64,000 nucleotides of DNA from the IMG/VR virus record IMGVR_UViG_3300031949_000012, positions 31,290-95,289 of that record. The stretch is one strand, 5' to 3'. This document shows, piece after piece, positions 150-61,568 of this stretch (position 1 is the stretch's first letter; each line of letters begins with the position of its first letter). This DNA is from a virus. The position numbers and the translations under genes are program-made. A model generated the notes under the pieces. It saw nothing but the letters and a program-made list of their open reading frames with translations. It had not been told where the DNA came from and did no database searches.

Positions 150-529
150 TGAAACCCAAATTATCAAACAAATCCGTAAATCTGCCGCTTCAAACGGCTG
201 AAACACAGCCGGACTACTGGCGGCTGGTCATTACTTTACTTGTCATGCTGCTCTTGTTTTTAGGAATCCCTCTATTGATGCAAATGCAAACTGGCCTGGC
301 GGCTGAAGATGTATGGCATAGACTGCCAGAGGAGCGACCCGGCAATGGGCGGCTGGTTTACATTCCTTTAGGGGACTGCCTTCATTTAGCTCGTTTTCAG
401 TTTGGCGTTGTTTTTTATGACCAGGAGAGTGACCGGGTTTTCCCAGATGAAACTCGTTGGCTGTACCCGGCCGAGTATAATCTGGCTGCAATGCCAGCCT
501 GTCGTAAGGAGAGCCATGAAACTGGTTAA
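146..529 (+). CDS. Hypothetical membrane protein
   Basis: One hydrophobic segment (LVITLLVMLLLFLGIPLLM); start moved to the ATGA-coupled ATG. Confidence 0.55.
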   Translation: MMKPKLSNKSVNLPLQTAETQPDYWRLVITLLVMLLLFLGIPLLMQMQTGLAAEDVWHRLPEERPGNGRLVYIPLGDCLHLARFQFGVVFYDQESDRVFPDETRWLYPAEYNLAAMPACRKESHETG

Positions 530-1301
530 AAGTCAGCTAATCAATATGCCAGATTTATGGTTCAGGGAAAATACAATGGACCATCTTATATTCGAGCAAG
601 TCTGGCTGCGTGACGAGTATAAAGTGCGCCCAATTTTACCGTTCCTACATGATGACTATAACATTGTAGATATTGGCGCTCACGCCGGTTACTTCACCCG
701 GTTTGTGCTGGAACATAGTCGGGCCAGAGTTATCGCCTTTGAGCCGCATTGGGAGAATTACCAATTGGCTTATCTGAACAATGAGAAGTTCATCAAAGAA
801 GGGCGCTGTTTTCTCTATAACCTGGCTGTGAGCCGTTCAGATGTCTCTACTCCCCAGTGGTTGAGTTATGAGAATAAGCAAATCTGGACTGAGGGGGCTA
901 ATACAGGCGGGTTTACCCTCTTTCCGCTGACTTCAGCATTGAGCGGTGAATATGTTCGGGTACTGGCCGTTGGTCTGGATGCTATCATTAAAACCTTTGG
1001 CTCGATTAACCTGCTCAAGATTGATGCTGAAAGCGGCGAATGGCCAGCCTTGCTGACTTCCAAACATCTTTCGGACATCTCTATGATCGTGGGGGAATAC
1101 CACGAAATGGGTGGCGTTTATGATGAGCACGATCCAGGCGTCTTTTGCTTGAGCTACCCACAGCTGACGGTTAAGATATTGCAAAAGCATCTGAAGCAAT
1201 ATGGTTTCAACTACTTTCTCTTTGACCGGATGATTAAACCTCATCCAAACCTGGGGCATTTCTACGCTCGAAAGGAAGCCGATGCTCTCTATCTATTGTG
1301 A
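516..1301 (+). CDS. FkbM-family SAM-dependent methyltransferase
   Basis: IVDIGAHAGYF, VIAFEP, LLKIDAESGE motifs; AAGGAG RBS before ATG 516. Confidence 0.88.
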   Translation: MKLVKSQLINMPDLWFRENTMDHLIFEQVWLRDEYKVRPILPFLHDDYNIVDIGAHAGYFTRFVLEHSRARVIAFEPHWENYQLAYLNNEKFIKEGRCFLYNLAVSRSDVSTPQWLSYENKQIWTEGANTGGFTLFPLTSALSGEYVRVLAVGLDAIIKTFGSINLLKIDAESGEWPALLTSKHLSDISMIVGEYHEMGGVYDEHDPGVFCLSYPQLTVKILQKHLKQYGFNYFLFDRMIKPHPNLGHFYARKEADALYLL

Positions 1302-2097
1302 AACCGATAACGTTTCGCTTACCATCTACCGTATTATCAGCCAGGTCAAGCAGACTGCGCCATCTAATATTCAATTCGTCAAAGCTATTGAAGACGCGGA
1401 CTATGCTATTCTGACAGCTATTGGCATTGATGGGGTGAAGGAGTTCATAGATCGGCTGCCCTGCATCTTACTACAGCTATGCCACAAAACAGCCGGCCCA
1501 CAGGAGTTTTGGGACTATGCTTGGAGCAAGGCGAAGCTGGTGGGCAGCTATTATGACCTGAAGCCACCCTGTCCTTACGTACGCTTTCCGGTTGGCTTTG
1601 ATGAGAAAGTCTTCTACAATAATTTTAATGGTGCGTGGAAGGAGCGACCTTATCCTTGCGCTGTGACCGGCCGGGTAGACGGACCAGAGGAAATTCGCTC
1701 CGTCTATGACGGTTTTGGCGTTGTGGTTCATCTGGGACGTGACTTTCGCTATGGACCAGGCTATATCCATTTCAACACCTTGACCGATGACGAGATGCGT
1801 GGCGTCTATTCCCGAAGCCAGTATGTGGCTGGACTAAGGCACATCGAAGGGTTTGAGCTGCCGATTATCGAGGGAGCGGCCTGTGGCTGCCAGCCGATTG
1901 CCTTTGATATGCCCTGCTACCGCTATTGGTTCGATGACTTTGCTACATTTATCCAGCCTAATCTACCGGTGACAGCACAGTTAGAACGCATCAGTCGGGA
2001 GAAACCATATCGGGAAATCAAGCCAGAGCACCTGGAGCGGTTTAAGCTCCACAATGCCTGGGCGCCGTTTTGGGACGCTTTTTTGGAGGTGGTTTGA
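1282..2097 (+). CDS. GT-B glycosyltransferase (GT4-like)
   Basis: EGFELPIIEGAACGCQPIAFD matches the E-x7-E signature of GT4. Confidence 0.82.
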   Translation: MLSIYCETDNVSLTIYRIISQVKQTAPSNIQFVKAIEDADYAILTAIGIDGVKEFIDRLPCILLQLCHKTAGPQEFWDYAWSKAKLVGSYYDLKPPCPYVRFPVGFDEKVFYNNFNGAWKERPYPCAVTGRVDGPEEIRSVYDGFGVVVHLGRDFRYGPGYIHFNTLTDDEMRGVYSRSQYVAGLRHIEGFELPIIEGAACGCQPIAFDMPCYRYWFDDFATFIQPNLPVTAQLERISREKPYREIKPEHLERFKLHNAWAPFWDAFLEVV

Positions 2098-2204
2098 CAC
2101 TTGATTTCTGGTTTGGTTTTCTTTGTGCGGGTGCGTTGGCGATTGTTTTCCTGGCCGGGTACACGTTCTATCTGGCCTACTATTTCTATAAAAGTTTGGA
2201 GTGA
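2094..2204 (+). CDS. 36-aa single-pass membrane peptide
   Basis: GGAGGTGG RBS, TTG start overlapping upstream TGA, stop overlapping downstream GTG; MTLDFWFGFLCAGALAIVFLAGYTFYLAYYFYKSLE. Confidence 0.55.
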   Translation: MTLDFWFGFLCAGALAIVFLAGYTFYLAYYFYKSLE

Positions 2205-2863
2205 CTATGGATGTTGTGATTATTGGTACGGGCGGTATGGCTAAAGAAATTTGGGGGTTATGCCAGATAACAGGTTATCGTGTCTTGGGGTTTGTTTCCG
2301 AACAGGCTGATTACCAGGACATGTTTATGGGCTTGCCGGTCTTGAGTTCAGACCACGAATGGCTAAGAGCAAGACGGAAAAACTGTGTCATTGCTAATGG
2401 CTCACCGGCTATCCGGCGCAAAATTGCCCAATTTTATCAGGATTCTGCGCATCATTTTCCGCATATTGTCCCAGTCGAGGCTATTATTTTGACCCACCTG
2501 AAAGAGATCGGCAATGGTACAAGCATTATGCCGGGTGGGGTCATTCAGCCTGAAGTCTCCCTGGGCGCGTTTGTTCATATCAACATGGGCGTTACCATCG
2601 GCCATGATGTAACGATTGGCGATTATTCGGTGGTGAACCATAATGCTGGAATTTCTGGTAATGTTACCATTGGTGAGGGAGTGCTGATAGGGGCCGGGGC
2701 GACGATTATCGAAGGGCATACCATTGGCGACTGGGCGATTGTTGGGGCCGGGGCGGTGGTGACGAGAAGTATTCCGGCCGGCGAAACCTGGGTTGGTGTT
2801 CCGGCCAAGCCGATGGAAAAGGAGCGCATTTCTTTTGCTGAACTTTACAATATCAACGAATGA
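2201..2863 (+). CDS. NeuD/PglD-family sugar acetyltransferase
   Basis: IIGTGGMAKE N-terminus, hexapeptide repeats with IGHDVTIGD, C-terminal VGVPAKP. Confidence 0.9.
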   Translation: MTMDVVIIGTGGMAKEIWGLCQITGYRVLGFVSEQADYQDMFMGLPVLSSDHEWLRARRKNCVIANGSPAIRRKIAQFYQDSAHHFPHIVPVEAIILTHLKEIGNGTSIMPGGVIQPEVSLGAFVHINMGVTIGHDVTIGDYSVVNHNAGISGNVTIGEGVLIGAGATIIEGHTIGDWAIVGAGAVVTRSIPAGETWVGVPAKPMEKERISFAELYNINE

Positions 2864-3467
2864 GCTCTGGCAGCCGGAAAATACCGGCTACGTCCGGTAT
2901 ATCTTATCCCTGCTGGAAGCTGACCCACATACCGCAAACATCCTTGCCATGATGGACCAAAAGGTTGTTTCTATCTGCCCATTGTTGGCTTATTTGGCTA
3001 TGGAAAACAATCTTGCCAGCTATATGGAGCTAGGTGTCCGGCGTGGCTTTTCAATGGCCATGATTGCCGGGCGCAGGCCATTCTGTCACCTGGTTGGTTT
3101 TGATAAATGGGAAGCTGACTATGGTAAAGCTCCAAACCCTGGGCCTGATTTCGTGAGGACAGAACTGGCGAAAGTGGGGTATATCGGCAAATTGGAACTC
3201 ATTACCGGCGATACGGTTGAAACCTTGCCTCAGTACAAGCCAAAGGCTCTATTCTCCCTTATTCTGGTGGATGCGGATCATACCCAGGAAGGTGTCTACA
3301 AAGATATTCTAAATGCTATCCATTTCCTGCATCCAGAAGGGGTGATGATTGTGGATGATCTGCAAGATAAGGATGTGAGAGCCGGTTTCGACCGGGCTGT
3401 TTCACTCATCCGGTTAGCTCATTGGAAACAGGACCGGGTAGGAGCGATATATTTTGAACCAGTCTAA
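2835..3467 (+). CDS. Class I SAM methyltransferase (Methyltransf_24-like)
   Basis: ELGVRRGFS, LILVDADHT, GVMIVDD motifs; probable TTG start after AAGGAG (start uncertain). Confidence 0.8.
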   Translation: MLNFTISTNELWQPENTGYVRYILSLLEADPHTANILAMMDQKVVSICPLLAYLAMENNLASYMELGVRRGFSMAMIAGRRPFCHLVGFDKWEADYGKAPNPGPDFVRTELAKVGYIGKLELITGDTVETLPQYKPKALFSLILVDADHTQEGVYKDILNAIHFLHPEGVMIVDDLQDKDVRAGFDRAVSLIRLAHWKQDRVGAIYFEPV

Positions 3468-4179
3468 AGTAGCGATTTGGTCACTCTTTCGAGATGACGA
3501 AAAAGGGGATTATCTGGATCAGTATCTTTACCGTATTCGTTGTCTCAGTTGGCCCAGGGATAAACTGCGTTTTTATCTGGTTGAAGGGGATAGTAAAGAT
3601 AATACCTTTGAAGTTCTGAAAGAAAAAACGGCTGGGAATAGCCGGATAAAGGTGCTCAAATGTGATAGTGGGATGCCAGATCACGGCTCTAAAGTTCACC
3701 CGGAACGATTTGCAGCCGTTTCCCGACCAGGGAACTACGCTGTGGATGAAATTGTGCACGACGACTGGGCAGATGTAGCAATGCTCATTGAAAGCGATTT
3801 GCTTTATGCGCCAGATTTAATCGAGCGGCTTTCATCCCATCTACCTGATGAAGACGCTGTTATTGCTCCGATGATCTGGATTTCATATCCCGATGGTAAG
3901 CTGCGTTTTTATGATATTTGGGGCTTTCGATTTGAGGAAAATGACCTTTTCCCGCCAGAAACGCCACAGTGGTTCGAGGAACGATTTGGGGGAAATGTTA
4001 CTGAGATATGGAGTGCGGGAAGCGTGGTGATGTTTCCCTTCAGAGCTTTAGCTGAGGGAGCCCGATATTCTGAAGTCTATCCAGAGGCGATTATGGGCTT
4101 TACCCGCCAGGCAGCGGCCTTGGGTTGCCGGATATATTGTGATCCGGCTACACACGTCACTCACCCTCCGCGTCCATAA
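3454..4179 (+). CDS. GT-A fold glycosyltransferase (Anp1/CAP59-like)
   Basis: EGDSKDNT, DxD-like ESD, VIAP, FYDIWGFR; paralog of 4339-5049. Confidence 0.7.
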   Translation: MNQSKVAIWSLFRDDEKGDYLDQYLYRIRCLSWPRDKLRFYLVEGDSKDNTFEVLKEKTAGNSRIKVLKCDSGMPDHGSKVHPERFAAVSRPGNYAVDEIVHDDWADVAMLIESDLLYAPDLIERLSSHLPDEDAVIAPMIWISYPDGKLRFYDIWGFRFEENDLFPPETPQWFEERFGGNVTEIWSAGSVVMFPFRALAEGARYSEVYPEAIMGFTRQAAALGCRIYCDPATHVTHPPRP

Positions 4180-4218
4180 CTGTCCAATTTTGGACAGCTA
4201 TATTCGACGGGCTCAATA

Positions 4219-4254
4219 CAAAAAGTCCCTGGCTGCCGGTCCAGGGACTTTTTG
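4219..4254. terminator. Bidirectional intrinsic terminator
   Basis: CAAAAAGTCCCTGG-ctgccggt-CCAGGGACTTTTTG. Confidence 0.88.
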
Positions 4255-4302
4255 CTTCTCAGGAGGTCCAACAAAACAAAAAGGAGGAAAACAATGTTTA
4301 CG
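4219..4302 (-). ncRNA. Candidate anti-RBS sRNA 1 (~84 nt)
   Basis: Lies between a perfect promoter and the terminator; no ORF; carries ACAUUGUUUUCCUCCUU and UUGGACCUCCUG tracts. Confidence 0.65.
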
Positions 4303-4308
4303 GGCTAA

Positions 4309-4337
4309 ATTATATATGATGGTTACATATCTGTCAA
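4309..4337 (-). promoter_or_regulatory. Sigma70 promoter, perfect consensus
   Basis: TTGACA-17 nt-TATAAT on the minus strand. Confidence 0.88.
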
Positions 4338-4338
4338 G

Positions 4339-5049
4339 CTAGAACGGATATTGCAGCCAGTTGGCGTCGTAGGTCAGAGGACCACCTGGCACGGGATGAT
4401 AGACAATGGTGCCTGGGTCGCACCAGATTGTTAGCCCAAAGGCCATTCGCAATGAATGGCAAAGCCCCTGTACCGCGTCTGCCTCAGTCAGTCTTGCGCC
4501 GTCATAAAGAGGGCCAGCCGGAAAGAGAACAACTGCTCCGGCTGTCAGTATCTCAAATGGTTCTGTCTTCTCCTTTAGCCAACCGGGGTGAGAGGGAAAG
4601 TTGTCGCCGTCCAGTTTGCGAAATCCCCAGATGTCATAGAAAGAAGGGCCGGCCATAATCAGGGGAGCGATGATCTCTTTCTGATGGGCCAGGAGCCGGG
4701 CGAGCAAAGCGGAGGCGTAAAGTAAGTCACTATCCAAATAGAGAACATAATCAGCCCAACCGTCTTTTGCAGCTGCATCGAGAGCGGCGTTATACGATAA
4801 TGCCAGGCACTTGAAGCGCTCTGGGTGAACGACACTGCCATAATGCTTAATGCCGGTATGAACTATTGAGATGGATATATCGGGCAGAGCAGCGGCCAGG
4901 TACTTCTCCGATGGCAGGGAACTATCCCCAACAGTAACATAGGGGCGGACTTCGATACTGCCGTAGTTGAGGGACTTTACCCGGTTGATGTAACGATGGC
5001 AATATTCCTCAGTGTTGTTTCTGAAGATGCTGATAATGGCGACTTTCAT
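4339..5049 (-). CDS. GT-A fold glycosyltransferase (Anp1/CAP59-like), paralog
   Basis: VAIISIFRN, VHPERF, YLDSDLLY (DxD), IIAP, FYDIWGFR. Confidence 0.72.
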   Translation of the reverse strand: MKVAIISIFRNNTEEYCHRYINRVKSLNYGSIEVRPYVTVGDSSLPSEKYLAAALPDISISIVHTGIKHYGSVVHPERFKCLALSYNAALDAAAKDGWADYVLYLDSDLLYASALLARLLAHQKEIIAPLIMAGPSFYDIWGFRKLDGDNFPSHPGWLKEKTEPFEILTAGAVVLFPAGPLYDGARLTEADAVQGLCHSLRMAFGLTIWCDPGTIVYHPVPGGPLTYDANWLQYPF

Positions 5050-37564: not shown

Positions 37565-38683
37565 TCATAATCTTGTTCTCACAATCTCCTCCCATTCCAT
37601 AGTCCGGCCAAACATGGCCCCACTGATGGGGCAGGTCATAATTCCGATAGGGGGAAAGTGCCCCCGGCGTCCCTTTAGAATTTCAAACCTGGTCCAGAAA
37701 GGACGCAGGTCGCGGTCATAGTCTACGCGTAAATCAGTTTGCGAGGCAAAGTGCAACTTGTTCCCCCCCATGCTGCCGACAACTTTGCCGCCGCTTCTGG
37801 CCGCCCGGATGTTGGTCACGCTCTCTTGGCTTATCGCCCAAAGAGTTGAGCCGGTTAGCTTTACCCATCGTTCCAGGTAGGGGATAACCCGCATTTGCTT
37901 CTCGTAATCACTGCCATCTAAGAAGTAGGCGGTGATGTGGTCAATAACCAGTTGACGTATCCCTTTTTCGGCCAGGGCCAGCCAGCGCTCGAAAGCGTTT
38001 TCGATGATTGAGGTGTCGGTAAACCGCTTTTCTCGTTCTATCTCATCATAGTGCTCTGAAACGCCATAGACAATGATGGGGAAGGTGGCAATGGCAGCGC
38101 CAGCTTTCTCCCAGGCGTCTACTTGACGCTCGGAGAAATTAAAACCGGGTTGGGCGGCATAACAAGCCTCAACGTAATCAGGAAATAGCACACAGTCTTT
38201 CATCATCTTACCATGCTTCGGACTGGTAATCCCCTCTAGCAATAGTTCAGGCGGGTCGTTGGGCAGCGGCCGGTTAAACATCTCATAGAGACAATGTGCC
38301 CCTTGGGGGCCGGTGTAAAATTCATAGACCATAATTTTGGTGGCCAGCATACATCTCATGACCATAAAGTATCGCTCTATGGTCATCCCAGTCTCTAAAC
38401 TGTCCACCGCCATTCGATATTGAGCCGGCAGCATCCCAGATAGAAATTGATTTAAGATGATATTGAGCAGCAGCGTAGTTTTTCTGGCCCCGCCCTCGCC
38501 CTGAATGGCGATAAGCTGGGACATCAAAGGCTTGATGCCTCGCGGAAACGCCTGATCTATATGATAGAAGCCCCAAGGCACGGCCTTGTCCAGGCCGGTT
38601 TCCTTTGGCGGCGTGTACGCCTGTGGCTCGGTCTCCATTGCAATCCGGGCCGTTAATCCAGTTGTAAGGTTGACGGCGCTCAT
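37565..38683 (-). CDS. DnaB/RecA-fold ATPase (probable replicative helicase)
   Basis: Walker A GEGGARKT, Walker B LVIDHI, AISQ, C-terminal KGRRG. Confidence 0.75.
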   Translation of the reverse strand: MSAVNLTTGLTARIAMETEPQAYTPPKETGLDKAVPWGFYHIDQAFPRGIKPLMSQLIAIQGEGGARKTTLLLNIILNQFLSGMLPAQYRMAVDSLETGMTIERYFMVMRCMLATKIMVYEFYTGPQGAHCLYEMFNRPLPNDPPELLLEGITSPKHGKMMKDCVLFPDYVEACYAAQPGFNFSERQVDAWEKAGAAIATFPIIVYGVSEHYDEIEREKRFTDTSIIENAFERWLALAEKGIRQLVIDHITAYFLDGSDYEKQMRVIPYLERWVKLTGSTLWAISQESVTNIRAARSGGKVVGSMGGNKLHFASQTDLRVDYDRDLRPFWTRFEILKGRRGHFPPIGIMTCPISGAMFGRTMEWEEIVRTRL

Positions 38684-39216
38684 TCATTTGACGCTCCGGC
38701 GTAAATGGCGGCAAAGTCGGTGAAGGTCTGTCGGGCGGAAACTGTGGCCATGATAGTCCGCCTCTTTATCCGGTAAAGCTCATTGGCCTTGTAGGTCAGA
38801 GCTGCGCCTTTGCCATTAAGCTGGCGAAGGCTTCCTATGTTCTCAGCCCACCACAGGTCTTTCAAAATAAAATCAAAAAGTTCCAGGGCAAAGTTGCTTG
38901 AGGTTAAGCCCGGCAGCGGTTTTTTTTGCGCCTGTAGAAAGGCTCTGGATCGTACCACGATCCAGTAGGCGCAACGTAACTGCTCACGCTTATCTATCGC
39001 GTCAAACAAAAAAGAGGTCCCGTCACGTTTGGAGATAAACTTTTCCAGAAGTTCAATTAACTTCTGGGCCGCTGCCCTCTCCTCATTTAGTAACGTCAAC
39101 CCCTTCTTTCCGATGTCTGTCTGTGCGCCGGGCAGATATAACTCAACGCCACAAGACGGACAACATCCATGCTTTCTAGCCATGAAAGCAACATTACACT
39201 TGGCACATGTACGCAT
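38680..39216 (-). CDS. Zinc-ribbon protein, possible replication initiator/loader
   Basis: CAKC...CPSC; coupled to helicase; strong RBS. Confidence 0.5.
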   Translation of the reverse strand: MRTCAKCNVAFMARKHGCCPSCGVELYLPGAQTDIGKKGLTLLNEERAAAQKLIELLEKFISKRDGTSFLFDAIDKREQLRCAYWIVVRSRAFLQAQKKPLPGLTSSNFALELFDFILKDLWWAENIGSLRQLNGKGAALTYKANELYRIKRRTIMATVSARQTFTDFAAIYAGASNE

Positions 39217-39249
39217 GTATTCCTCCTATATGTTTTGTTTGGACCAGAC

Positions 39250-39406
39250 AAAAAAGCCGTTTCAGGTTCAATTCTGCTGCCAACCTTCTCCGTCTCACCT
39301 CTACGGGAGAGACCTGCCGGGGTCTTGTTCTGAGAAGAACTGCCGGTTTGCAGCAGAGCCAAAACCAAAACGGCTATGCCCTACTTGTGCGATATAGTCC
39401 CCCGGC
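39250..39406 (-). ncRNA. Long-hairpin RNA/leader upstream of replication genes
   Basis: Stem 39255-39375 with G-U pairs on the minus strand, ends in U6; promoter at 39413-39441. Confidence 0.5.
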
Positions 39407-39412
39407 CCAATC

Positions 39413-39441
39413 ATTATAGCACGAAAATTGATTTTCGGCAA
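39413..39441 (-). promoter_or_regulatory. Sigma70 promoter with palindromic operator in spacer
   Basis: TTGCCG-17-TATAAT; CGAAAATTGATTTTCG at 39422-39437. Confidence 0.75.
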
Positions 39442-43398: not shown

Positions 43399-43597
43399 GT
43401 AACACTGCCCACAGCTTTTTGCTTAATTCCTGCCTCACTCTTGCTTCAGCAATTTCGTCTGTCAGGTTCTCTACTACATTTGGAATGACATTCAAAACGC
43501 CGCGCAATTGTTTAATGGCGCTTACCAGAACTTCCGCATCGTCACTTCTAATGTCATGATCTAAAACCACGGTCAAGGCATTATATCTGTCAGTCAT
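43385..43597 (-). CDS. Hypothetical protein
   Basis: RBS GGAGGT before ATG 43597. Confidence 0.55.
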   Translation of the reverse strand: MTDRYNALTVVLDHDIRSDDAEVLVSAIKQLRGVLNVIPNVVENLTDEIAEARVRQELSKKLWAVLHGEH

Positions 43598-43865
43598 GTT
43601 TGACCTCCGTCTTATTATATGGTTTCCATATTCCCAAGAGAGGGTCACAACAGGAAATCATTTTGTAGTCAATTAGCTTCTCTATATTCTGTGCTGTCTC
43701 GTGTGGTGGATAGCTTTGCTCTTTGATATAAGCAAGTACATATCCCCCTTCTGGCAGTTCAAACACGGCGGCTGGATTGAACAGGTCGTACCTGTAGAAC
43801 TCTTGGGCGTTCTCTATCGTTTCCTGTTTGCCACTAAACCAATTGATAAAATGATTGATACTCAT
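43590..43865 (-). CDS. Hypothetical protein
   Basis: RBS GGGAGG. Confidence 0.55.
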   Translation of the reverse strand: MSINHFINWFSGKQETIENAQEFYRYDLFNPAAVFELPEGGYVLAYIKEQSYPPHETAQNIEKLIDYKMISCCDPLLGIWKPYNKTEVKHD

Positions 43866-43959: not shown

Positions 43960-43988
43960 ATTATAAGCCGAAAATTGATTTTCGTCAA
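43960..43988 (-). promoter_or_regulatory. Sigma70 promoter with palindromic operator in spacer
   Basis: TTGACG-17-TATAAT; CGAAAATTGATTTTCG at 43969-43984. Confidence 0.82.
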
Positions 43989-48024: not shown

Positions 48025-51000
48025 TTTGTAATTTCCATTCTGAGATAATTTTCCAATGTGCTTGCGTGTTCGGTGGTAAGAGCCGTCACGTCCCAACCCT
48101 TCAGATGGAAGGATGATAACCGCTGCACCACCCAGGCAAATTTCTCCTCTCCAACCCGGCCCATCAGTTCGTTGATAGTTTTTAGCTGTTCGTCTGACAC
48201 CGGGTTTCTAAGTGCGGCTCTCTTGTCCGCAGAGATGATGAGCCCAATAGCTGGAGATTTCTCATTGCTGGTCACGTTTTGCCTCCTTCTCTTTTTCTTG
48301 TAGAACTATGGCTTGGACAAATGCGCTTTCTGCATCGAAGCGGGCCTGGCTGCGTGTCCAAAGCCAATGAACGTTACGTTTGATAATAATAATTTTTTCC
48401 TGGTCAGTAACCAAGAGAGCCTCATCGGGCCGGTTCCAGCGAAAGCCGCTCTCGAAAACGGTCTTGTAAATGTCAGGCCAGATTATCTGGTCATCTTCAA
48501 GTTCCGGCAGCGGGTCAGACTTTGCCTGGGTGGCAAACACAACGCCTATCCACTTCTCATAAGGCCGGATGACCTGCCAGCGAAAAACCCCGGCATCATT
48601 AAGAAAACTTTGCCACATGTCTAAGAAGACATAAAGATATTCCTCAAGGCCCAAGCCCTCGCCCCGTTTTACAACGGGCAGATCGGTGATGAAGCCCTGC
48701 CGGGCTACTGGATACCTCTCTACCGGCTCAAGAGATTGGTCTGGGCTATTTTCAATCAGGTCTAAAACTATATCCCGCTCGCTGGGGCTAAAATCATATA
48801 GGTCGACATATAGGTCGAACATATAGTTCAACATCTTCCAGAGCCGGGACAAATCAGGCGTTTCCATGTTTGACCTCCATGGCCTTTTCTAAGGCCGCTG
48901 TTATCTTTTCAATCTGCCGGGCCCGCTCCTCTCTTAGCTGGTTCAGAGCTTCGGTTATGGTTTTAGCCTGAGTGTAATCCCCAGCCTTGACGCACAAATC
49001 AACTAACTGGTGGGCCAGGCTCTCCGGTGACGAGCCATGATAGCCAATCACCTTGGCGGTCTTTGCCGTTAGACGGACAACGACCAGGTTAGGATGGTCT
49101 ATCTGGTTCTCTAGCCCGATTTCGTAACGGCGGCCGGCTAAGGAGAAGGCGCAAATCAGGTGATATTGCTTGGTTCTATCTTTGCTTTTTTCATTCACTA
49201 TTCACCACTTTCTCCCAGGGTCAGGATGAAAAGGGTAGTCAGGCTGCGGGTAAACACATCTTGCAGCTCGACCAGCCTTTCAAAAATAACCTCTTGTGCC
49301 GGAGTAAGTTCCAGGCTATGCTTAACCAGATACATAGCCAGGTCATCAGCGTTTCCAACTACCAGTTCTTCTCCACCATCGGCAAAGCGAAGGGGAGCCC
49401 CGCAACAGATGGTCCGGTAAGAGAAATCCATTCCATTTTCGGCTGCAAGAGGGGCAGTATATTCATGGCTCCCCTCCATTCCAAATATCAGTTCTGTGGT
49501 GGTCACATCAATGGTTTCTTTCTCCACCCTAGTTACTTTACTACACTGCGGGCACTTCACCAAAACAGGTTTCATTCCTCCACCTCTTTCCAGATACTAT
49601 AGCCTTCACGCTGTTCAATCAATATGTCAGCGCCAGTCGACGTTGGACAGTCGTCAGACCTCAGATAAAAGCCGCTGTCTAAAATGGCTTTATAAACCTC
49701 CTCTGGCAGCTCGATTTTTATCGAGCACAAACCGCGACATTCGCAAAAGTATTTCATCACTCCTCCTGTAAATATGTTTTCGGATCATACGACATTTCAC
49801 TTGCCTCGCCTCCCTCGCCTCCCGGCTCTCTGGCCTCCTCCCATAGCCTGGCCAGGTCTTGTTTGTCTTTCACATCTCTAGGCAGAATAAAGCCTCGTGT
49901 CAGTTTCGGGCTCTTGAGCGTAATCGTCACCAGCCCCTTATCATCAATCAGAACACACTCAACCTCGTGTCGCATAAAGCGAAACGAAAGATAGTGGTTG
50001 ATGACTGACCAGGCCCCGGCTTCAGACTCCGGGTCTGCCTGTAAGAAACCCTCCTCAACGCCAGACAGTTTGCCCGGCGCTCGAAGCAAGACCGGCTGGT
50101 GTTCCAAGCCAGCAAAAACAGTACTCATTAAATCGCTCATGTGTTTTCCTCCTAGTTCGGTGAACTCACTAGTTCGTCTCCGCTGCCTGCTCTCGAAGCA
50201 GGCGCGCATGATAAAGTTTTATTTCCTCAAGTGAAACGGCCGCCCGCCGGTGTTTGCGGCTGGCGTGTTCCTGGTGAACATACAAATATTCACCTACTTC
50301 TTTTTCGTCTGGGACAGCAATAACTTGTCCCCTTTCGAGACAAACCTCTATTGCCCCCAAGATAGCCGCCAGGCGTTCAGCCTCAGGCACGTCGGAAAAG
50401 GCGTTTTGAAAATCGTCAGCCAGTGACATCTTTCACTCCTTTCAAGCCCAATGAAGAATGATACCCCCCAAGGCTTTTACCCGGCTAAAGATTCTGGTGA
50501 TGCGCCGGTAATCGTCCATAGCGGTGGTATATGGAATATTCTTACGTTCCTTAATCAACCTCTCCAACTCCACATCGTAGACCGGCAAGATAAAATCACA
50601 CGAAAAATTGAGAAGGTCCTCATCTGGACTGTAAGGGTGAAGATCGCCTGTTTCCTCCATCGTATAAAGGTTGACTTTGCCCAACCAGGCAACATCGTTT
50701 CTAGCCTGGACGAAATCCTCAATCGCTAGATTTGTTTCACCGTTCACTGCTCCCATCTTATCTTCTGATATATCGTCACAATAGTCTCTCATGCGCGTTT
50801 CTCCTGTAATAGTTCGTAGACCTGAAACTCGGCCGGGTCAAGCCACTTCTCATAGCGGGCCCGTGTCCAAATTTGGACAACAGCATCTTCTAATAACTGC
50901 CGGCTTCTGTCACTCACAAAACGCACCCCGGCATTGTGGATGCTGCCGGCAATGATTTTGTAAGGGTCGCCCTTGTCATCCTTGAGCTTCACGTAGAACA

Positions 51001-51879
51001 GGCGGCCCCGGTTCATTTGGGATTTCCGGCGCTCATTCGCCATCTTGTTCATACTCCTCTTGTCTGGCTTCTTCTTTCAGTATCATCTCCCAGACCTGGG
51101 CCGCTTCAGCATGATAGTTTGCATCTTCCAGGGCCCAATGGAAAATTCTTAGCAGGGGCAGGCCATCCCAGTCGCAAAAGCGGGCCAGGGCAATACCCAG
51201 GCCGTTCTCCTGGCGTTCCTGAACGTTGTCAGGCCGGATATGGTCCGGCGGCAAAGACTCCTCTGCTTCGTAAATGGCGATCCTACTCAGCAGTTCGCTA
51301 GAGTTTAATTTGGTAGACATTGTTTTCCTCCTTGAATTGTAGTTCTAAAGTGTAGCCGGGGGGATATTCCCCATTGCTGACTAAAACTATCTTTCCGGCC
51401 GAAAGAGTGATAGTGATTTCCTGAGCACGTGATACCTCTACGCTTTCTACTTCTCCATCTAAAATGGTTTGAATTTTAGCCTGCAACAAGTCGGCCTCGT
51501 TATCTGCATCTTCATCTCCCCAACCTTCAATCTCCTCAGCTTGATAAAGGCCAGCCGGCGAAATGCTGTCTTCAGCATCGGGCGTTCTGGCTTCAATGAT
51601 CTCGAACGGAACGGATCGGACCGTGAGCTTGTAGCTATGAGGAAATTCAAGGCGATACACTCCCTTGATGATAAGGTGGGGGTAAATCATCAAGCGGTTA
51701 GGTTTGCCATAAATCCAGGTGTCGTTCCAGTAATAGCCCTTCCTGTAACAAAAGTCTACAATGTAATTCTTGTCGTCATCTGGAAAAACGACTGGCAGGC
51801 GTTTCGCACTTTCTATGACAATCTTGTTTTCAGGCGGGTCCAGGGGACCCTGGTAAGTCAGCTTGATTTTGCGTTTCAC
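48021..51879 (-). CDS. Run of small hypothetical ORFs (48021-48275, 48262-48867, 48854-49198, 49198-49575, 49572-49760, 49757-50140, 50169-50429, 50442-50792, 50789-51052, 51033-51320, 51298-51879)
   Basis: Overlapping or coupled ORFs, most with clear GGAG(G) RBS; no recognisable family. Confidence 0.6.
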
Positions 51880-52930
51880 CGTTTTCCTCCTTAAAACCAA
51901 ATTTGAATATAAGCGGCTTGAGTGGTCTGTTATCCCACATGGCGAATAAGTAAGCCGCTAAGGATGGGTGATACTCATTCGCCCATAGCGCAAATTCCTT
52001 GCGCGATGCTTTTGGGGCCTGGTAGAATACAAGTCCAATCAGATATTCTGCCCTGGCTATAACTTCTAAAATTTGTTTTTCCCATCCCCGAACTTCAGCC
52101 AGGTACTCGTCTGGGATAATGCTCATGGCCTCAGCCAGTGTTCCGGCTTCTACGTGCGCCAGGATACTTTTGAAGCTCAAGCCGCTGATGAGTTTGTGTA
52201 ACTTTCGATATTCGTCACCTTTGAACTTGAATCGTTCACCGTCGGCGAACTCGGCTACCCAACCCTCTGCAGTAGGCGGCAAAACTTTGGCCGCTTCAAC
52301 GATTTTGTCCGGCGTCTCGAAACGAAACGCAAAAGGGACAGAGAACTTGTAGATTTCCGCTATATGCCTCAACTCTTCAGGCGAAAGGAAGCCGCCAGTA
52401 AATCTCGACCGGGCAGCTAACAAAACCAGGTCCTCTTTTTGGTAGTCGATTACGATGCGATTGGCCGGATAAACAATCTCGAACAGTAAGGTTAGAGCTG
52501 GGGGTAAATCATCAAGATTATAGTTCCTGTTCAGGAACTCGGTTGCCCAAACCGCCTGATCGCTATCGAAACTACCACGGGTGGCGACTCGAAAACCGCC
52601 ATTTTCACGGTAAAGGATGCCCAGGGAACCATCTATCTTCTCGGTGACTTTCTTGATAGGTGCATCTGAATACCGGCCTCCTTCGCCCCAGTTGAAGAAC
52701 TTATCAAATGGCCGGGCTACCACTTCGCCCGTCTCGGCGTTCAAAATCAAGCCCCGGCTAATGCGCTCGATGAAATTCCAGCGCCCTTCAAACTGGGCTT
52801 TCGCCGTATAGTTAAAGAGCCGCAGCGGGCCACGTTCAGCAACGTAAATTTCGCCCAGGCTTTTCCAGTCCGAGAAGCCGGTTTGGGCCAGGTTTTGAAG
52901 GTCGGTTATGGTTTCAACCGAAGTCCTCAC
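51830..52930 (-). CDS. RNA ligase (T4 Rnl1-like)
   Basis: RGLI, PFDKFFN, EKIDGS (motif I), LLFEI, EGWV, KFK. Confidence 0.88.
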   Translation of the reverse strand: MRTSVETITDLQNLAQTGFSDWKSLGEIYVAERGPLRLFNYTAKAQFEGRWNFIERISRGLILNAETGEVVARPFDKFFNWGEGGRYSDAPIKKVTEKIDGSLGILYRENGGFRVATRGSFDSDQAVWATEFLNRNYNLDDLPPALTLLFEIVYPANRIVIDYQKEDLVLLAARSRFTGGFLSPEELRHIAEIYKFSVPFAFRFETPDKIVEAAKVLPPTAEGWVAEFADGERFKFKGDEYRKLHKLISGLSFKSILAHVEAGTLAEAMSIIPDEYLAEVRGWEKQILEVIARAEYLIGLVFYQAPKASRKEFALWANEYHPSLAAYLFAMWDNRPLKPLIFKFGFKEENGETQNQADLPGSPGPA

Positions 52931-59739: not shown

Positions 59740-60207
59740 TTATTTTTTATAACCTTTGGATATGCTTCTAATACCCCTTTTATGGCAAGGCCCACAAAGT
59801 TCATTATGGGTCAAGCCTCGCCAATAAAAGGCGCATATTTTACATTTATGTAAAATTGTTCTTCTGCTGGCTTTTGGTGCCTTATTTTCCGGTTGCTCTA
59901 AATTGTTTTTCTCTGCTTCCGCTCTCCTGGCCGCTTTGACTGCCTTTACAACTTTATTGGCTAAAACAAAGAAAATTCCGCCTGGAAAGCGTGGCCGGCT
60001 TCCATCCGGTAGCATCATAACCCCGCCCGAATTGACGAACTTTAACGTTTCGAGATAAACCAGGCGGGTTTGCTTTGCGCCGATAGAACGCAAAATTTTT
60101 CGTAGACGACCGCAATCCCCCTCGAACCTTTCTGGGTCCTTGAAAAAGGCGGCCACAATTTTATTATAAACCTCAAGTTGTTCTGGGTTCAAATCCGAGA
60201 TTGGCAT
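59740..60207 (-). CDS. PHAX-type RNA-binding domain protein
   Basis: IG...ET...GG...DGSRPRFPGGIFFVL closely resembles the PHAX RNA-binding motif (DGSRRRTPGGVF); C-terminal CxxC...CxxC. Confidence 0.72.
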   Translation of the reverse strand: MPISDLNPEQLEVYNKIVAAFFKDPERFEGDCGRLRKILRSIGAKQTRLVYLETLKFVNSGGVMMLPDGSRPRFPGGIFFVLANKVVKAVKAARRAEAEKNNLEQPENKAPKASRRTILHKCKICAFYWRGLTHNELCGPCHKRGIRSISKGYKK

Positions 60208-60229
60208 TATCAAAACCCTTTACGGAAAC

Positions 60230-60458
60230 AAAAAAGGCGCCAAGCTATCACGCCCGCGCCGCAAAATGAAAAGTCCGTCGCTCTAATCTGCAACCCCCAA
60301 AGCGAGTACAGGAATTTTGGGGTTAGCGGCCCCTCCGAAAAGGAGTTGCATATTAGAAGAACGGACTTATTTAAGATAACAAAAAAGTTTTTCATGTACC
60401 TGTACTCGCTTTTCTTTCCCCTCCGTTTGCCAGGCGGATGATTGGCTATTTAATCCTG
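60230..60458 (-). ncRNA. Structured leader/ncRNA upstream of PHAX-like gene
   Basis: Crossing stems 60271-60297/60342-60368 and 60299-60312/60399-60412; terminal hairpin plus U6. Confidence 0.58.
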
Positions 60459-60464
60459 TTTAGA

Positions 60465-60493
60465 ATGATAACCGATTTTAGCATTTTTGTCAA
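60465..60493 (-). promoter_or_regulatory. Sigma70 promoter
   Basis: TTGACA-17-TATCAT. Confidence 0.78.
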
Positions 60494-61378
60494 ATCTCGC
60501 TCTCGCTATTTAATATAGCTTTTTTCTTTGGTACGCAGCCAAGAGGCTTGCCCTCAGCGATACGCCAATGTCTGTTGCAGACCCAGATCGTTTGTCCCTG
60601 CCAGATAACTTCCTTGATACCAATGCGGGGGCAGTGTTTAGGCCATTGGCAATAATGAAAACCGCCTGGCCGATTAAACTCGTTGTCCATCGTTAAAATT
60701 CATCATAATCCTGTTCGTTGACCCATTTCCAAACATCCGGGCCATAGATTGCTTCCATAGCCGCCTCGTAGATATAGTGTTCCAGGTTTTCATCTACTTC
60801 GCCCGTCTTGACTTCCTCAATCCAAGAAGCGGTCAGCTTACGCAAGGCCGTAAAATCTTGCTGGTCAATCGCCAGCGGCGTTGGTTCATTCATCGGTTTC
60901 TCCTGTTTCTTTGAAAAAGACGCCCATTTGAAAGTCTCTGGCCAATTCCTTGATCTTTTGCCTGGCCCAGCTCATACACCATGCTTTCCCGGCTTCAAGG
61001 TGGGTTTGCTCGCCCTTGCCCTGGACGGTGAAACTGGCCGAGCTGTCACCAAACCAGACGACGCACAGCGCGTCATCATCATCGGGAAAGATAAAGAATT
61101 TGAACGGGTTCCGGTAGAACCGGGCCTCCTTACCCTTGTCGTACTCACTCCATTCCATCTTGAACCTCCTGCCTGTTTATCATCGTTATCACCGCCTTCA
61201 ATGCAGCCTCAAACTCATCTAAGATGTCCATGTATTGCTGGCTGCACAGATCGCCCCGTAAGTCGCACATGCAGCCGGTATCGGAACAGCGCTCGTCTAT
61301 TAAATCAACGAGCTTTTTCAGAGCCCGGCGGACTTTTTGCATGGTGTCCTCAGATGATGGTAGATAATCTATAGTCAT
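60490..61378 (-). CDS. Four small hypothetical ORFs (60490-60690, 60693-60893, 60886-61158, 61145-61378)
   Basis: Coupled ORFs, most with RBSs. Confidence 0.55.
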
Positions 61379-61397: not shown

Positions 61398-61533
61398 AAA
61401 AATCCCCACTTCGGGGGGATAGTGTCTCTGTCGTCTTACCATGCCGACCGACCGCAGGTAAGAACCCACTATCCCTGAAAGAGGGGATTACTCGGTCTGT
61501 TACAAGCCCTGGAGAGACAGGGCTAAATTCCTA
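61398..61533 (-). ncRNA. Structured leader/ncRNA (~135 nt)
   Basis: Long interrupted stem 61401-61489 ending in U5; 5' hairpin 61505-61524. Confidence 0.5.
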
Positions 61534-61539
61534 CTTCCC

Positions 61540-61568
61540 ATGATAAGCCAAAAATCAACTTTTGTCAA
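61540..61568 (-). promoter_or_regulatory. Sigma70 promoter
   Basis: TTGACA-17-TATCAT. Confidence 0.78.

Follow-up and report, generated by a model that had tools for sequence, protein, structure and literature searches.

Few phage small RNAs are, to our knowledge, known to control genes of their own phage in trans, c4 of P1 and P7 being the textbook case, and we know of almost none from phages with strong-SD, Gram-positive-style signals. c4 is a 77-nt phage RNA that acts in trans and blocks the ribosome-binding region of its phage's ant mRNA, and with it the translation of an early function (PMC12197685). The locus described here is a candidate gene for an RNA of ~85 nt, found in a 64,000-nt stretch of a phage genome (hereafter the window); like c4 (RF01695), it would yield a phage RNA of similar size that pairs in trans around the RBS of the phage's own mRNA, the pairing being predicted from sequence, and c4 appears to be its closest phage precedent in function. 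While c4 is processed from its target's own operon and presents its seeds in loops, the RNA predicted here would be transcribed from a promoter, and ended by a terminator, of its own, and its seed would be linear and unpaired, at the 5' end; its predicted targets lie at distances of 35 and 47 kb, and nothing links it to immunity.

In design, the closest relatives would be the streptococcal csRNAs. These are ~90-100 nt long, are made from very strong promoters and carry anti-SD and anti-AUG motifs in an unpaired region between two stem-loops, and they are thought to block translation initiation regions (PMC3091779). The csRNAs (RF02379) and the present RNA share an anti-SD and an anti-AUG CAU in an unpaired region, here called tract A. 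However, csRNAs are mainly chromosomal and have CiaR-dependent promoters, whereas this element is preceded by a plain -35/-10 and its terminator hairpin alone is predicted. A third comparison is P22 sar, a 68/69-nt RNA that pairs with the ant mRNA and blocks its translation initiation (PMC12197685). sar acts on the gene that it overlaps, whereas the overlapped "gene" is just 4 codons long here, so that any real targets must lie elsewhere, in trans. The sar promoter faces into the ant ribosome-binding region; a promoter at 4337-4309 has a like geometry relative to a plus-strand SD and ATG.

Two further groups resemble the locus in part. RsaE/RoxS, C-rich sRNAs of Bacillota, have pyrimidine-rich unpaired SD-pairing motifs and promoter-to-terminator genes of ~100 nt, but the motif is CCUCC and not CCCC here, there is no conserved fold and the element is phage-borne. 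DapZ/MicL-type 3'-UTR sRNAs are Hfq-dependent, enterobacterial and expressed from promoters inside coding sequence; they also have the upstream mRNA's terminator in common and a promoter at or near the end of the coding region, which in the present case starts 1 nt after the stop codon. No Rfam family matches the element at gathering scores, and a relaxed search of region 4150-4400 (E up to 10) matched neither c4 nor csRNA. Against the RsaE/RoxS model (RF01820), the element scores 20.6 bits (E 0.23, gathering score 79) and is not a member; a second unit of the phage (39584-39452, see below) scores 22 bits against the csRNA model, for which the cut-off is 57, and is not a member either.

The phage and the candidate sRNA locus

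The phage record is 95,289 bp long, with 127-bp direct terminal repeats and 50% G+C; the window corresponds to its bases 31290-95289 (IMG/VR). Late genes occupy the plus strand, from the terminase and portal genes just left of the window through an island of glycan enzymes to the head and tail genes, and the minus strand carries a long run of early and middle genes. The glycan island (window 516-5049), between packaging and head genes, encodes an FkbM methyltransferase, a PglD-like acetyltransferase, a second methyltransferase and two GT-A-like enzymes and may have a role in virion glycosylation; of its genes, the last glycosyltransferase (GT) gene alone lies on the minus strand, with a promoter-like site to itself. 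As a phage it is deeply novel: none of 50,697 cultured-phage records (INPHARED, which contained nothing similar by DNA either) matches its capsid protein, and its terminase is ~25% identical to T4-type terminases and no better, the terminase search giving no clue to the host. Its strong AGGAGG ribosome-binding sites, together with its TTGACA/TATAAT promoters, suggest that the expression signals of the host are Bacillota-like.

No relative carrying the candidate sRNA unit was obtained from the collections searched. In IMG/VR, no relative was obtained by GT protein, exact sRNA core or capsid protein search, the capsid alignment giving relatives at 26-29% identity only; JGI/ENA metagenomes searched with the capsid protein and GTDB genomes returned nothing. 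Capsid homologues at 75, 70, 60 and 51-39% identity are found on Logan, ENA and JGI contigs. On eight viral contigs with GT homologues (27-36% identity), coding genes follow the GT stop and there is no sRNA unit. A degenerate two-tract DNA pattern produced 17 matches, all by chance and in coding DNA.

The locus occupies a convergent gap of 159 nt, bounded by a GT2-like gene (3454-4179, plus) and a GT-like gene (4339-5049, minus). A -35 hexamer TTGACA (4332-4337, minus), starting 1 nt after the stop codon of the GT-like gene (4339-4341), is followed after a 17-nt spacer by a -10 hexamer TATAAT (4309-4314, minus). An earlier reading of the sequence alone (the sequence-only reading) had described a perfect promoter that points into a nearby terminator, and this is indeed what the locus contains: the site at 4337-4309 matches the consensus at 12/12 positions and a hairpin (4220-4253) follows ~48 nt past the inferred start. 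It is the sole 12/12 site in the 95,289-bp genome, where shuffled sequences average 0.06 per genome on both strands. Sites of at least 11/12 number 9 genome-wide versus 1.08 in shuffles (~8-fold enriched) and are placed sensibly, at operon heads and in divergent control regions; this enrichment and placement indicate that the phage does use such promoters. A chance origin of a perfect promoter so near a terminator, with no gene behind it, is very unlikely.

The intrinsic terminator (4220-4253, arms 4220-4232 and 4241-4253) has a 13-15-bp stem, an 8-nt loop and A5/T5 flanks and can act in both directions, being common to the plus-strand glycan operon, the minus-strand GT gene and the sRNA; an automated terminator scan passed over it because the T-run was counted into the stem. 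The predicted transcript of ~85 nt (4216-4302, minus) would start at C4302/G4301, as judged from the -10 spacing, and end in the U-tract 4224-4215. Its fold has an energy of -27.7 kcal/mol (z -3.3), with no pairing in the centroid for the 47 nt that precede the hairpin. A coding role was considered and rejected: on the minus strand, no ORF of at least 40 aa starts inside the unit, no gene lies downstream and the sole frame in the predicted RNA is an 11-codon TTG frame without SD; on the plus strand, an SD (4283-4287) is followed at a 6-nt spacing by an ATG and a 4-codon ORF (MFTG, then stop; 4294-4308), which could either be the seed's footprint in antisense or remain from a gene start. The locus can be described, from its sequence features, as a putative orphan promoter-to-terminator cassette of ~85 nt. 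Transcription of the GT gene, for which there is a separate promoter-like site (5115-5087, 10/12), has no other terminator at which to stop, and the GT mRNA must thus include the entire sRNA element in its 3' UTR.

Seed tracts, predicted targets and the start-region background

The 5' end of the predicted RNA is formed by tract A (4281-4301, minus), in which an anti-AUG CAU (4296-4294) is followed after 7 nt by an anti-SD CCUCCUU, all of it unpaired in the centroid. The sequence-only reading had pointed to a 17-nt match with the start of a gene 47 kb away, and this match is exact: 4281-4297 is the reverse complement of 51317-51333 (17/17), and the complementarity extends at 20/21 to 4301, the predicted 5' end. 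The first predicted target is the SD, AUG and first codons of gene 51033-51320 (51313-51333, minus), which encodes a small helical protein of 95 aa with no family match. A second predicted target, newly found here and beyond the earlier list, is the leader of gene 38680-39216: the stretch 4265-4293 (minus) is complementary at 26/29 positions, with one bulge or gap, to the leader and SD at 39245-39216 (minus). When this leader is folded, the SD/AUG part of the site is unpaired and the 5' GGUCC lies inside a long-range stem. The product (178 aa) is zinc-ribbon-like at its N-terminus and the gene precedes a weakly DnaB-like gene, which as a lead only makes it a putative replication-module gene; no function could be named for the target proteins from searches.

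Shorter matches are also present. The 12-nt matches reported at 51881-51892 and 50142-50153 (both minus) exist as described, at the RBSs of genes 51298-51879 and 49757-50140, and make these possible secondary targets; the two sites have a private RBS signature in common but consist mostly of SD. This signature, the 11-mer AGGAGGAAAAC, occurs 4 times in the window versus 0.04 expected: at the starts of genes 51298-51879, 51033-51320 and 49757-50140, which form a block at 49.7-51.9 kb, and in the sRNA element. An RNA ligase gene of the T4 Rnl1 type (E 1.2e-13; window 51830-52930, minus) lies directly upstream of this block. Further along the RNA, tract B (GGACCUCCUG, 4260-4271, minus) is a second anti-SD that forms 12 bp, one of them G-U, with 61171-61160, the RBS of gene 60886-61158.

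The element reads as a mosaic of its two main partners, its A-rich upstream part following the 38680-39216 leader and its SD-to-AUG part following 51033-51320; by reading, at 4 positions in the SD-to-start stretch that all share, a departure from one source is an agreement with the other.

Ribosome-binding sites resemble one another, and the phage's own start regions were for this reason taken as the null. Among 157 called start regions, just one pair shares at least 17 nt. This pair, the sole real one in the genome, belongs to the genes at genome 15026-15229 and 15825-16199 (minus, left of the window), whose start regions are identical over 18 nt (AGGAGGAAACCAATGAAT), probably through a local duplication. 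Match statistics restricted in this way to start regions, which the sequence-only reading had put forward as a check, set the element apart: on the plus strand, it reaches local-alignment scores of 38 (38680-39216) and 37 against two different start regions, while no best-partner score exceeds 36, and no second-best score 29, across 162 real start regions. The element has 4 partners that share at least 12 nt with it, as many as are found for just 1 of the 162.

Binding energies give a different picture. Full-length duplex folding with opening energies yielded unrealistic duplexes through the terminator, and the pairing of the full RNA with start regions of 90 nt was instead evaluated by dimer partition functions. 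The strongest values are -28.8 kcal/mol for 38680-39216, -28.6 for 60886-61158 and -26.4 for 51033-51320, against a mean of -11.2 (SD 5.2) over 161 start regions, and no seed shuffle in 24 reaches -28.8 kcal/mol. A stricter control fuses the antisense of 27 real strong-SD start regions to the sRNA's own terminator: here the best energy averages -23.5 +/- 5.8 kcal/mol, 6/27 beat -28.8 and 2/27 beat the element's third-best value. Against a start-region-like null, the binding energy of the element is not exceptional, and energy alone defines no regulon. The pairing of tract B with the RBS of 60886-61158, claimed earlier, stands as a duplex but fails as evidence of specificity, that start region being the best partner of 5 of the 27 control antisense RNAs. 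It is the long exact or near-exact matches that single out two predicted targets, 51033-51320 and the 38680-39216 leader. The promoter, the terminator, a seed that is unpaired in the predicted fold and a complementarity above the start-region background in match length and alignment score, though not in binding energy, are evident as features of the sequence.

Proposed action of the RNA and competing explanations

Our leading, though tentative, reading is that the element is a free-standing gene for a non-coding RNA of ~85 nt that represses translation of the phage's own genes in trans. Transcription by the host RNA polymerase and its primary sigma factor would begin at the 4337-4309 promoter and stop at the 4253-4220 terminator, releasing an RNA with ~47 single-stranded nt at its front; in order from the 5' end, these match in antisense a start codon, AGGAGGAAAAC, an A-rich leader and a second SD. 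The seed would pair in trans at two main sites, over the SD and AUG of 51033-51320 with 17 perfect bp (20/21) and over the 38680-39216 leader with its SD (26/29); its pairing with the neighbouring genes that start at 51879 and 50140 would be weaker. Pairing would keep 30S subunits off the target start sites, and the duplex would probably be exposed to a double-strand RNase and cleaved; as the RNA accumulates, translation of these early or middle genes would fall. We infer transcription, the RNA ends, pairing in vivo and repression from the features described above. The sequence-only reading had likewise proposed a trans-acting repressor; of its proposal, the architecture is supported, with an independent short minus-strand unit and an accessible antisense of an SD and AUG, and the "block of early genes" that it named as targets contracts, in that only 51033-51320, together with the 38680-39216 leader, stands above the RBS background.

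Several points count against the repressor. Thermodynamics alone picks no targets, given that 6/27 controls beat its best energy; its plus strand is a complete start region with a 4-codon ORF, as expected of a gene-start relic; the RNA is also contained in the GT mRNA 3' UTR; and GT homologues on 8 other viral contigs are without the unit.

The second of these points leads to an alternative that is unlikely, though the most probable of the rivals: the element could have been left behind as a copy of an early-gene start, the body of that gene having disappeared on arrival of the inverted GT gene. In that case, the minus promoter would be the remnant of a sar-like pair or would serve in transcriptional interference or antisense read-through into the late glycan operon, and trans pairing would be incidental, with no regulatory value. 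A decayed gene start had already been raised as a possible refutation, and the plus strand does look like one, with a textbook SD, a 6-nt spacing, an ATG and a stop after 4 codons; the element is like the 38680-39216 leader even in following a terminator U-run directly, recombination between gene starts would yield such a mosaic of two start regions, and distant GT homologues lack the unit. What weakens such a scenario is the promoter: a 12/12 antisense site inside ~45 nt is very improbable without selection (0.06 per 95 kb in shuffles, both strands), and a disused promoter should have decayed. Moreover, a second unit of this phage (43988-43877) repeats the arrangement, with an inverted start-region copy between its own promoter and terminator. 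Two independent copies of this kind are hard to explain as relics, which makes a class of anti-start-site RNAs more credible. Finally, an accessible complementarity of 17-26 bp should lead to pairing, provided that the RNA is made.

Rather unlikely in our view is a generic anti-SD RNA, which together with unit 39584-39452 would imitate the 16S rRNA 3' tail without a specific regulon, binding the strong SDs of many phage or host mRNAs or titrating a factor that recognises the anti-SD. Both tracts do contain CCUCC, the mean binding over all start regions is already -11 kcal/mol so that the ranking is a continuum, comparable binding to other start regions is predicted for the antisense of any strong one, and the 60886-61158 start region is a promiscuous partner; the weak RsaE and csRNA scores (20.6 bits for the element, 22 bits for the second unit) would also reflect a general design. 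The matches nevertheless reach well past the SD core (17 nt with the AUG included; 26/29 over an A-rich leader) and are closer than those of real start regions to one another, and AGGAGGAAAAC is confined to one gene block and the sRNA element.

That there is no functional RNA, the promoter being silent in the real host or the RNA unstable, is improbable considering the ~8-fold enrichment of consensus promoters at sensible operon heads and the strength of the terminator. The least probable reading takes the element as a mere 3' UTR and terminator of GT gene 4339-5049, acting in cis (on stability or through 3'UTR-5'UTR pairing, of which icaR is a case) with its promoter unused: the GT mRNA does run from a promoter-like site (5115-5087, 10/12) through the element for want of another terminator, but by reading the anti-SD tracts form at most ~6 bp with the gene's own weak RBS (GAGGU), a candidate pairing that we rejected, and a perfect -35/-10 starting 1 nt after the stop codon would be left unexplained.

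Sister units and other RNA-like elements

Two more minus-strand units of the phage combine a TATAAT and a good -35 with a single-stranded CU-rich tract and a strong hairpin. In the unit at 39584-39452 (predicted RNA 39549-39452), the promoter is TTGCCG-17-TATAAT and the single-stranded tract ends in an 11-bp GC hairpin; there are three CCUCC tracts, one of which is UCACCUCCUUA, like the 16S rRNA 3' tail, and start regions are matched over 13 and 11 nt at best. The genome has few orphan intergenic SD/anti-SD pentamers, 5 of which lie in the sRNA element and this unit (4 read directly, the fifth being scored by the script as having an ORF behind it). The unit at 43988-43877 (predicted RNA 43953-43877) has TTGACG-17-TATAAT, a CU-rich tract and a hairpin, and the RBS of gene 43590-43865 follows ~20 nt on; it could be an sRNA or an attenuator leader. 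Its tract is antisense to two late-gene start motifs, AGGAGAAAG of genes 5262, 6620 and 11835 and AAGGAGAATAG of capsid gene 7046 and gene 29313 (GGAGAATAG at the portal gene); it also matches the start region of the decoration gene at 26/30 positions, across the start codon. Judged by these features, the two sister units support a putative class of anti-start-site RNAs in this phage.

A broader and quite unlikely extension is that the temporal programme of the phage is partly translational, with a set of sRNAs each antisense to the start-region signature of one gene class: the sRNA at 4216-4302 would address the AGGAGGAAAAC block and 38680-39216, RNA 43953-43877 the late head, portal and tail genes, and RNA 39549-39452 would add three further tracts. 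In such a scheme, RBS "address labels" and matching sRNAs would make up a combinatorial switch, with seeds that originated when target start regions were duplicated in inverted form. At present, the element is a sequence-based prediction of a regulator of an ordinary kind. If real, it would offer a compact example, easy to test, of how a deeply novel phage controls its genes at the level of translation, and with its two sister units it suggests that private RBS signatures can serve as address labels for gene sets.

Other control regions of the phage have features of interest. The minus-strand promoters at 43960-43982 and 39413-39435 have a near-identical 17-nt spacer (AAAATCAATTTTCGGCT) and are identical at 20/23 positions including the -10, where chance would give 0 such cases; a similar spacer is found in the promoter at 61568-61540, and there may be an operator within the spacer. 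Between the 39441-39413 promoter and gene 38680-39216 lies a leader of ~160 nt (39245-39406, minus) with a long multibranch fold and a closing stem followed by U6 (-68 kcal/mol, z -2.3); it has no Rfam match and could be an attenuator, a riboswitch-like leader or a separate RNA. At 60215-60465 and 61400-61540 (minus), two more 11/12 promoters are each followed by an ORF-free stretch of 120-250 nt and a terminator-like hairpin just before a gene. One of the genes behind such hairpins, 59740-60213, encodes a protein with a match to the PHAX RNA-binding domain (E 1.9e-9), and the recurring promoter-leader-terminator-gene layout suggests antitermination control.
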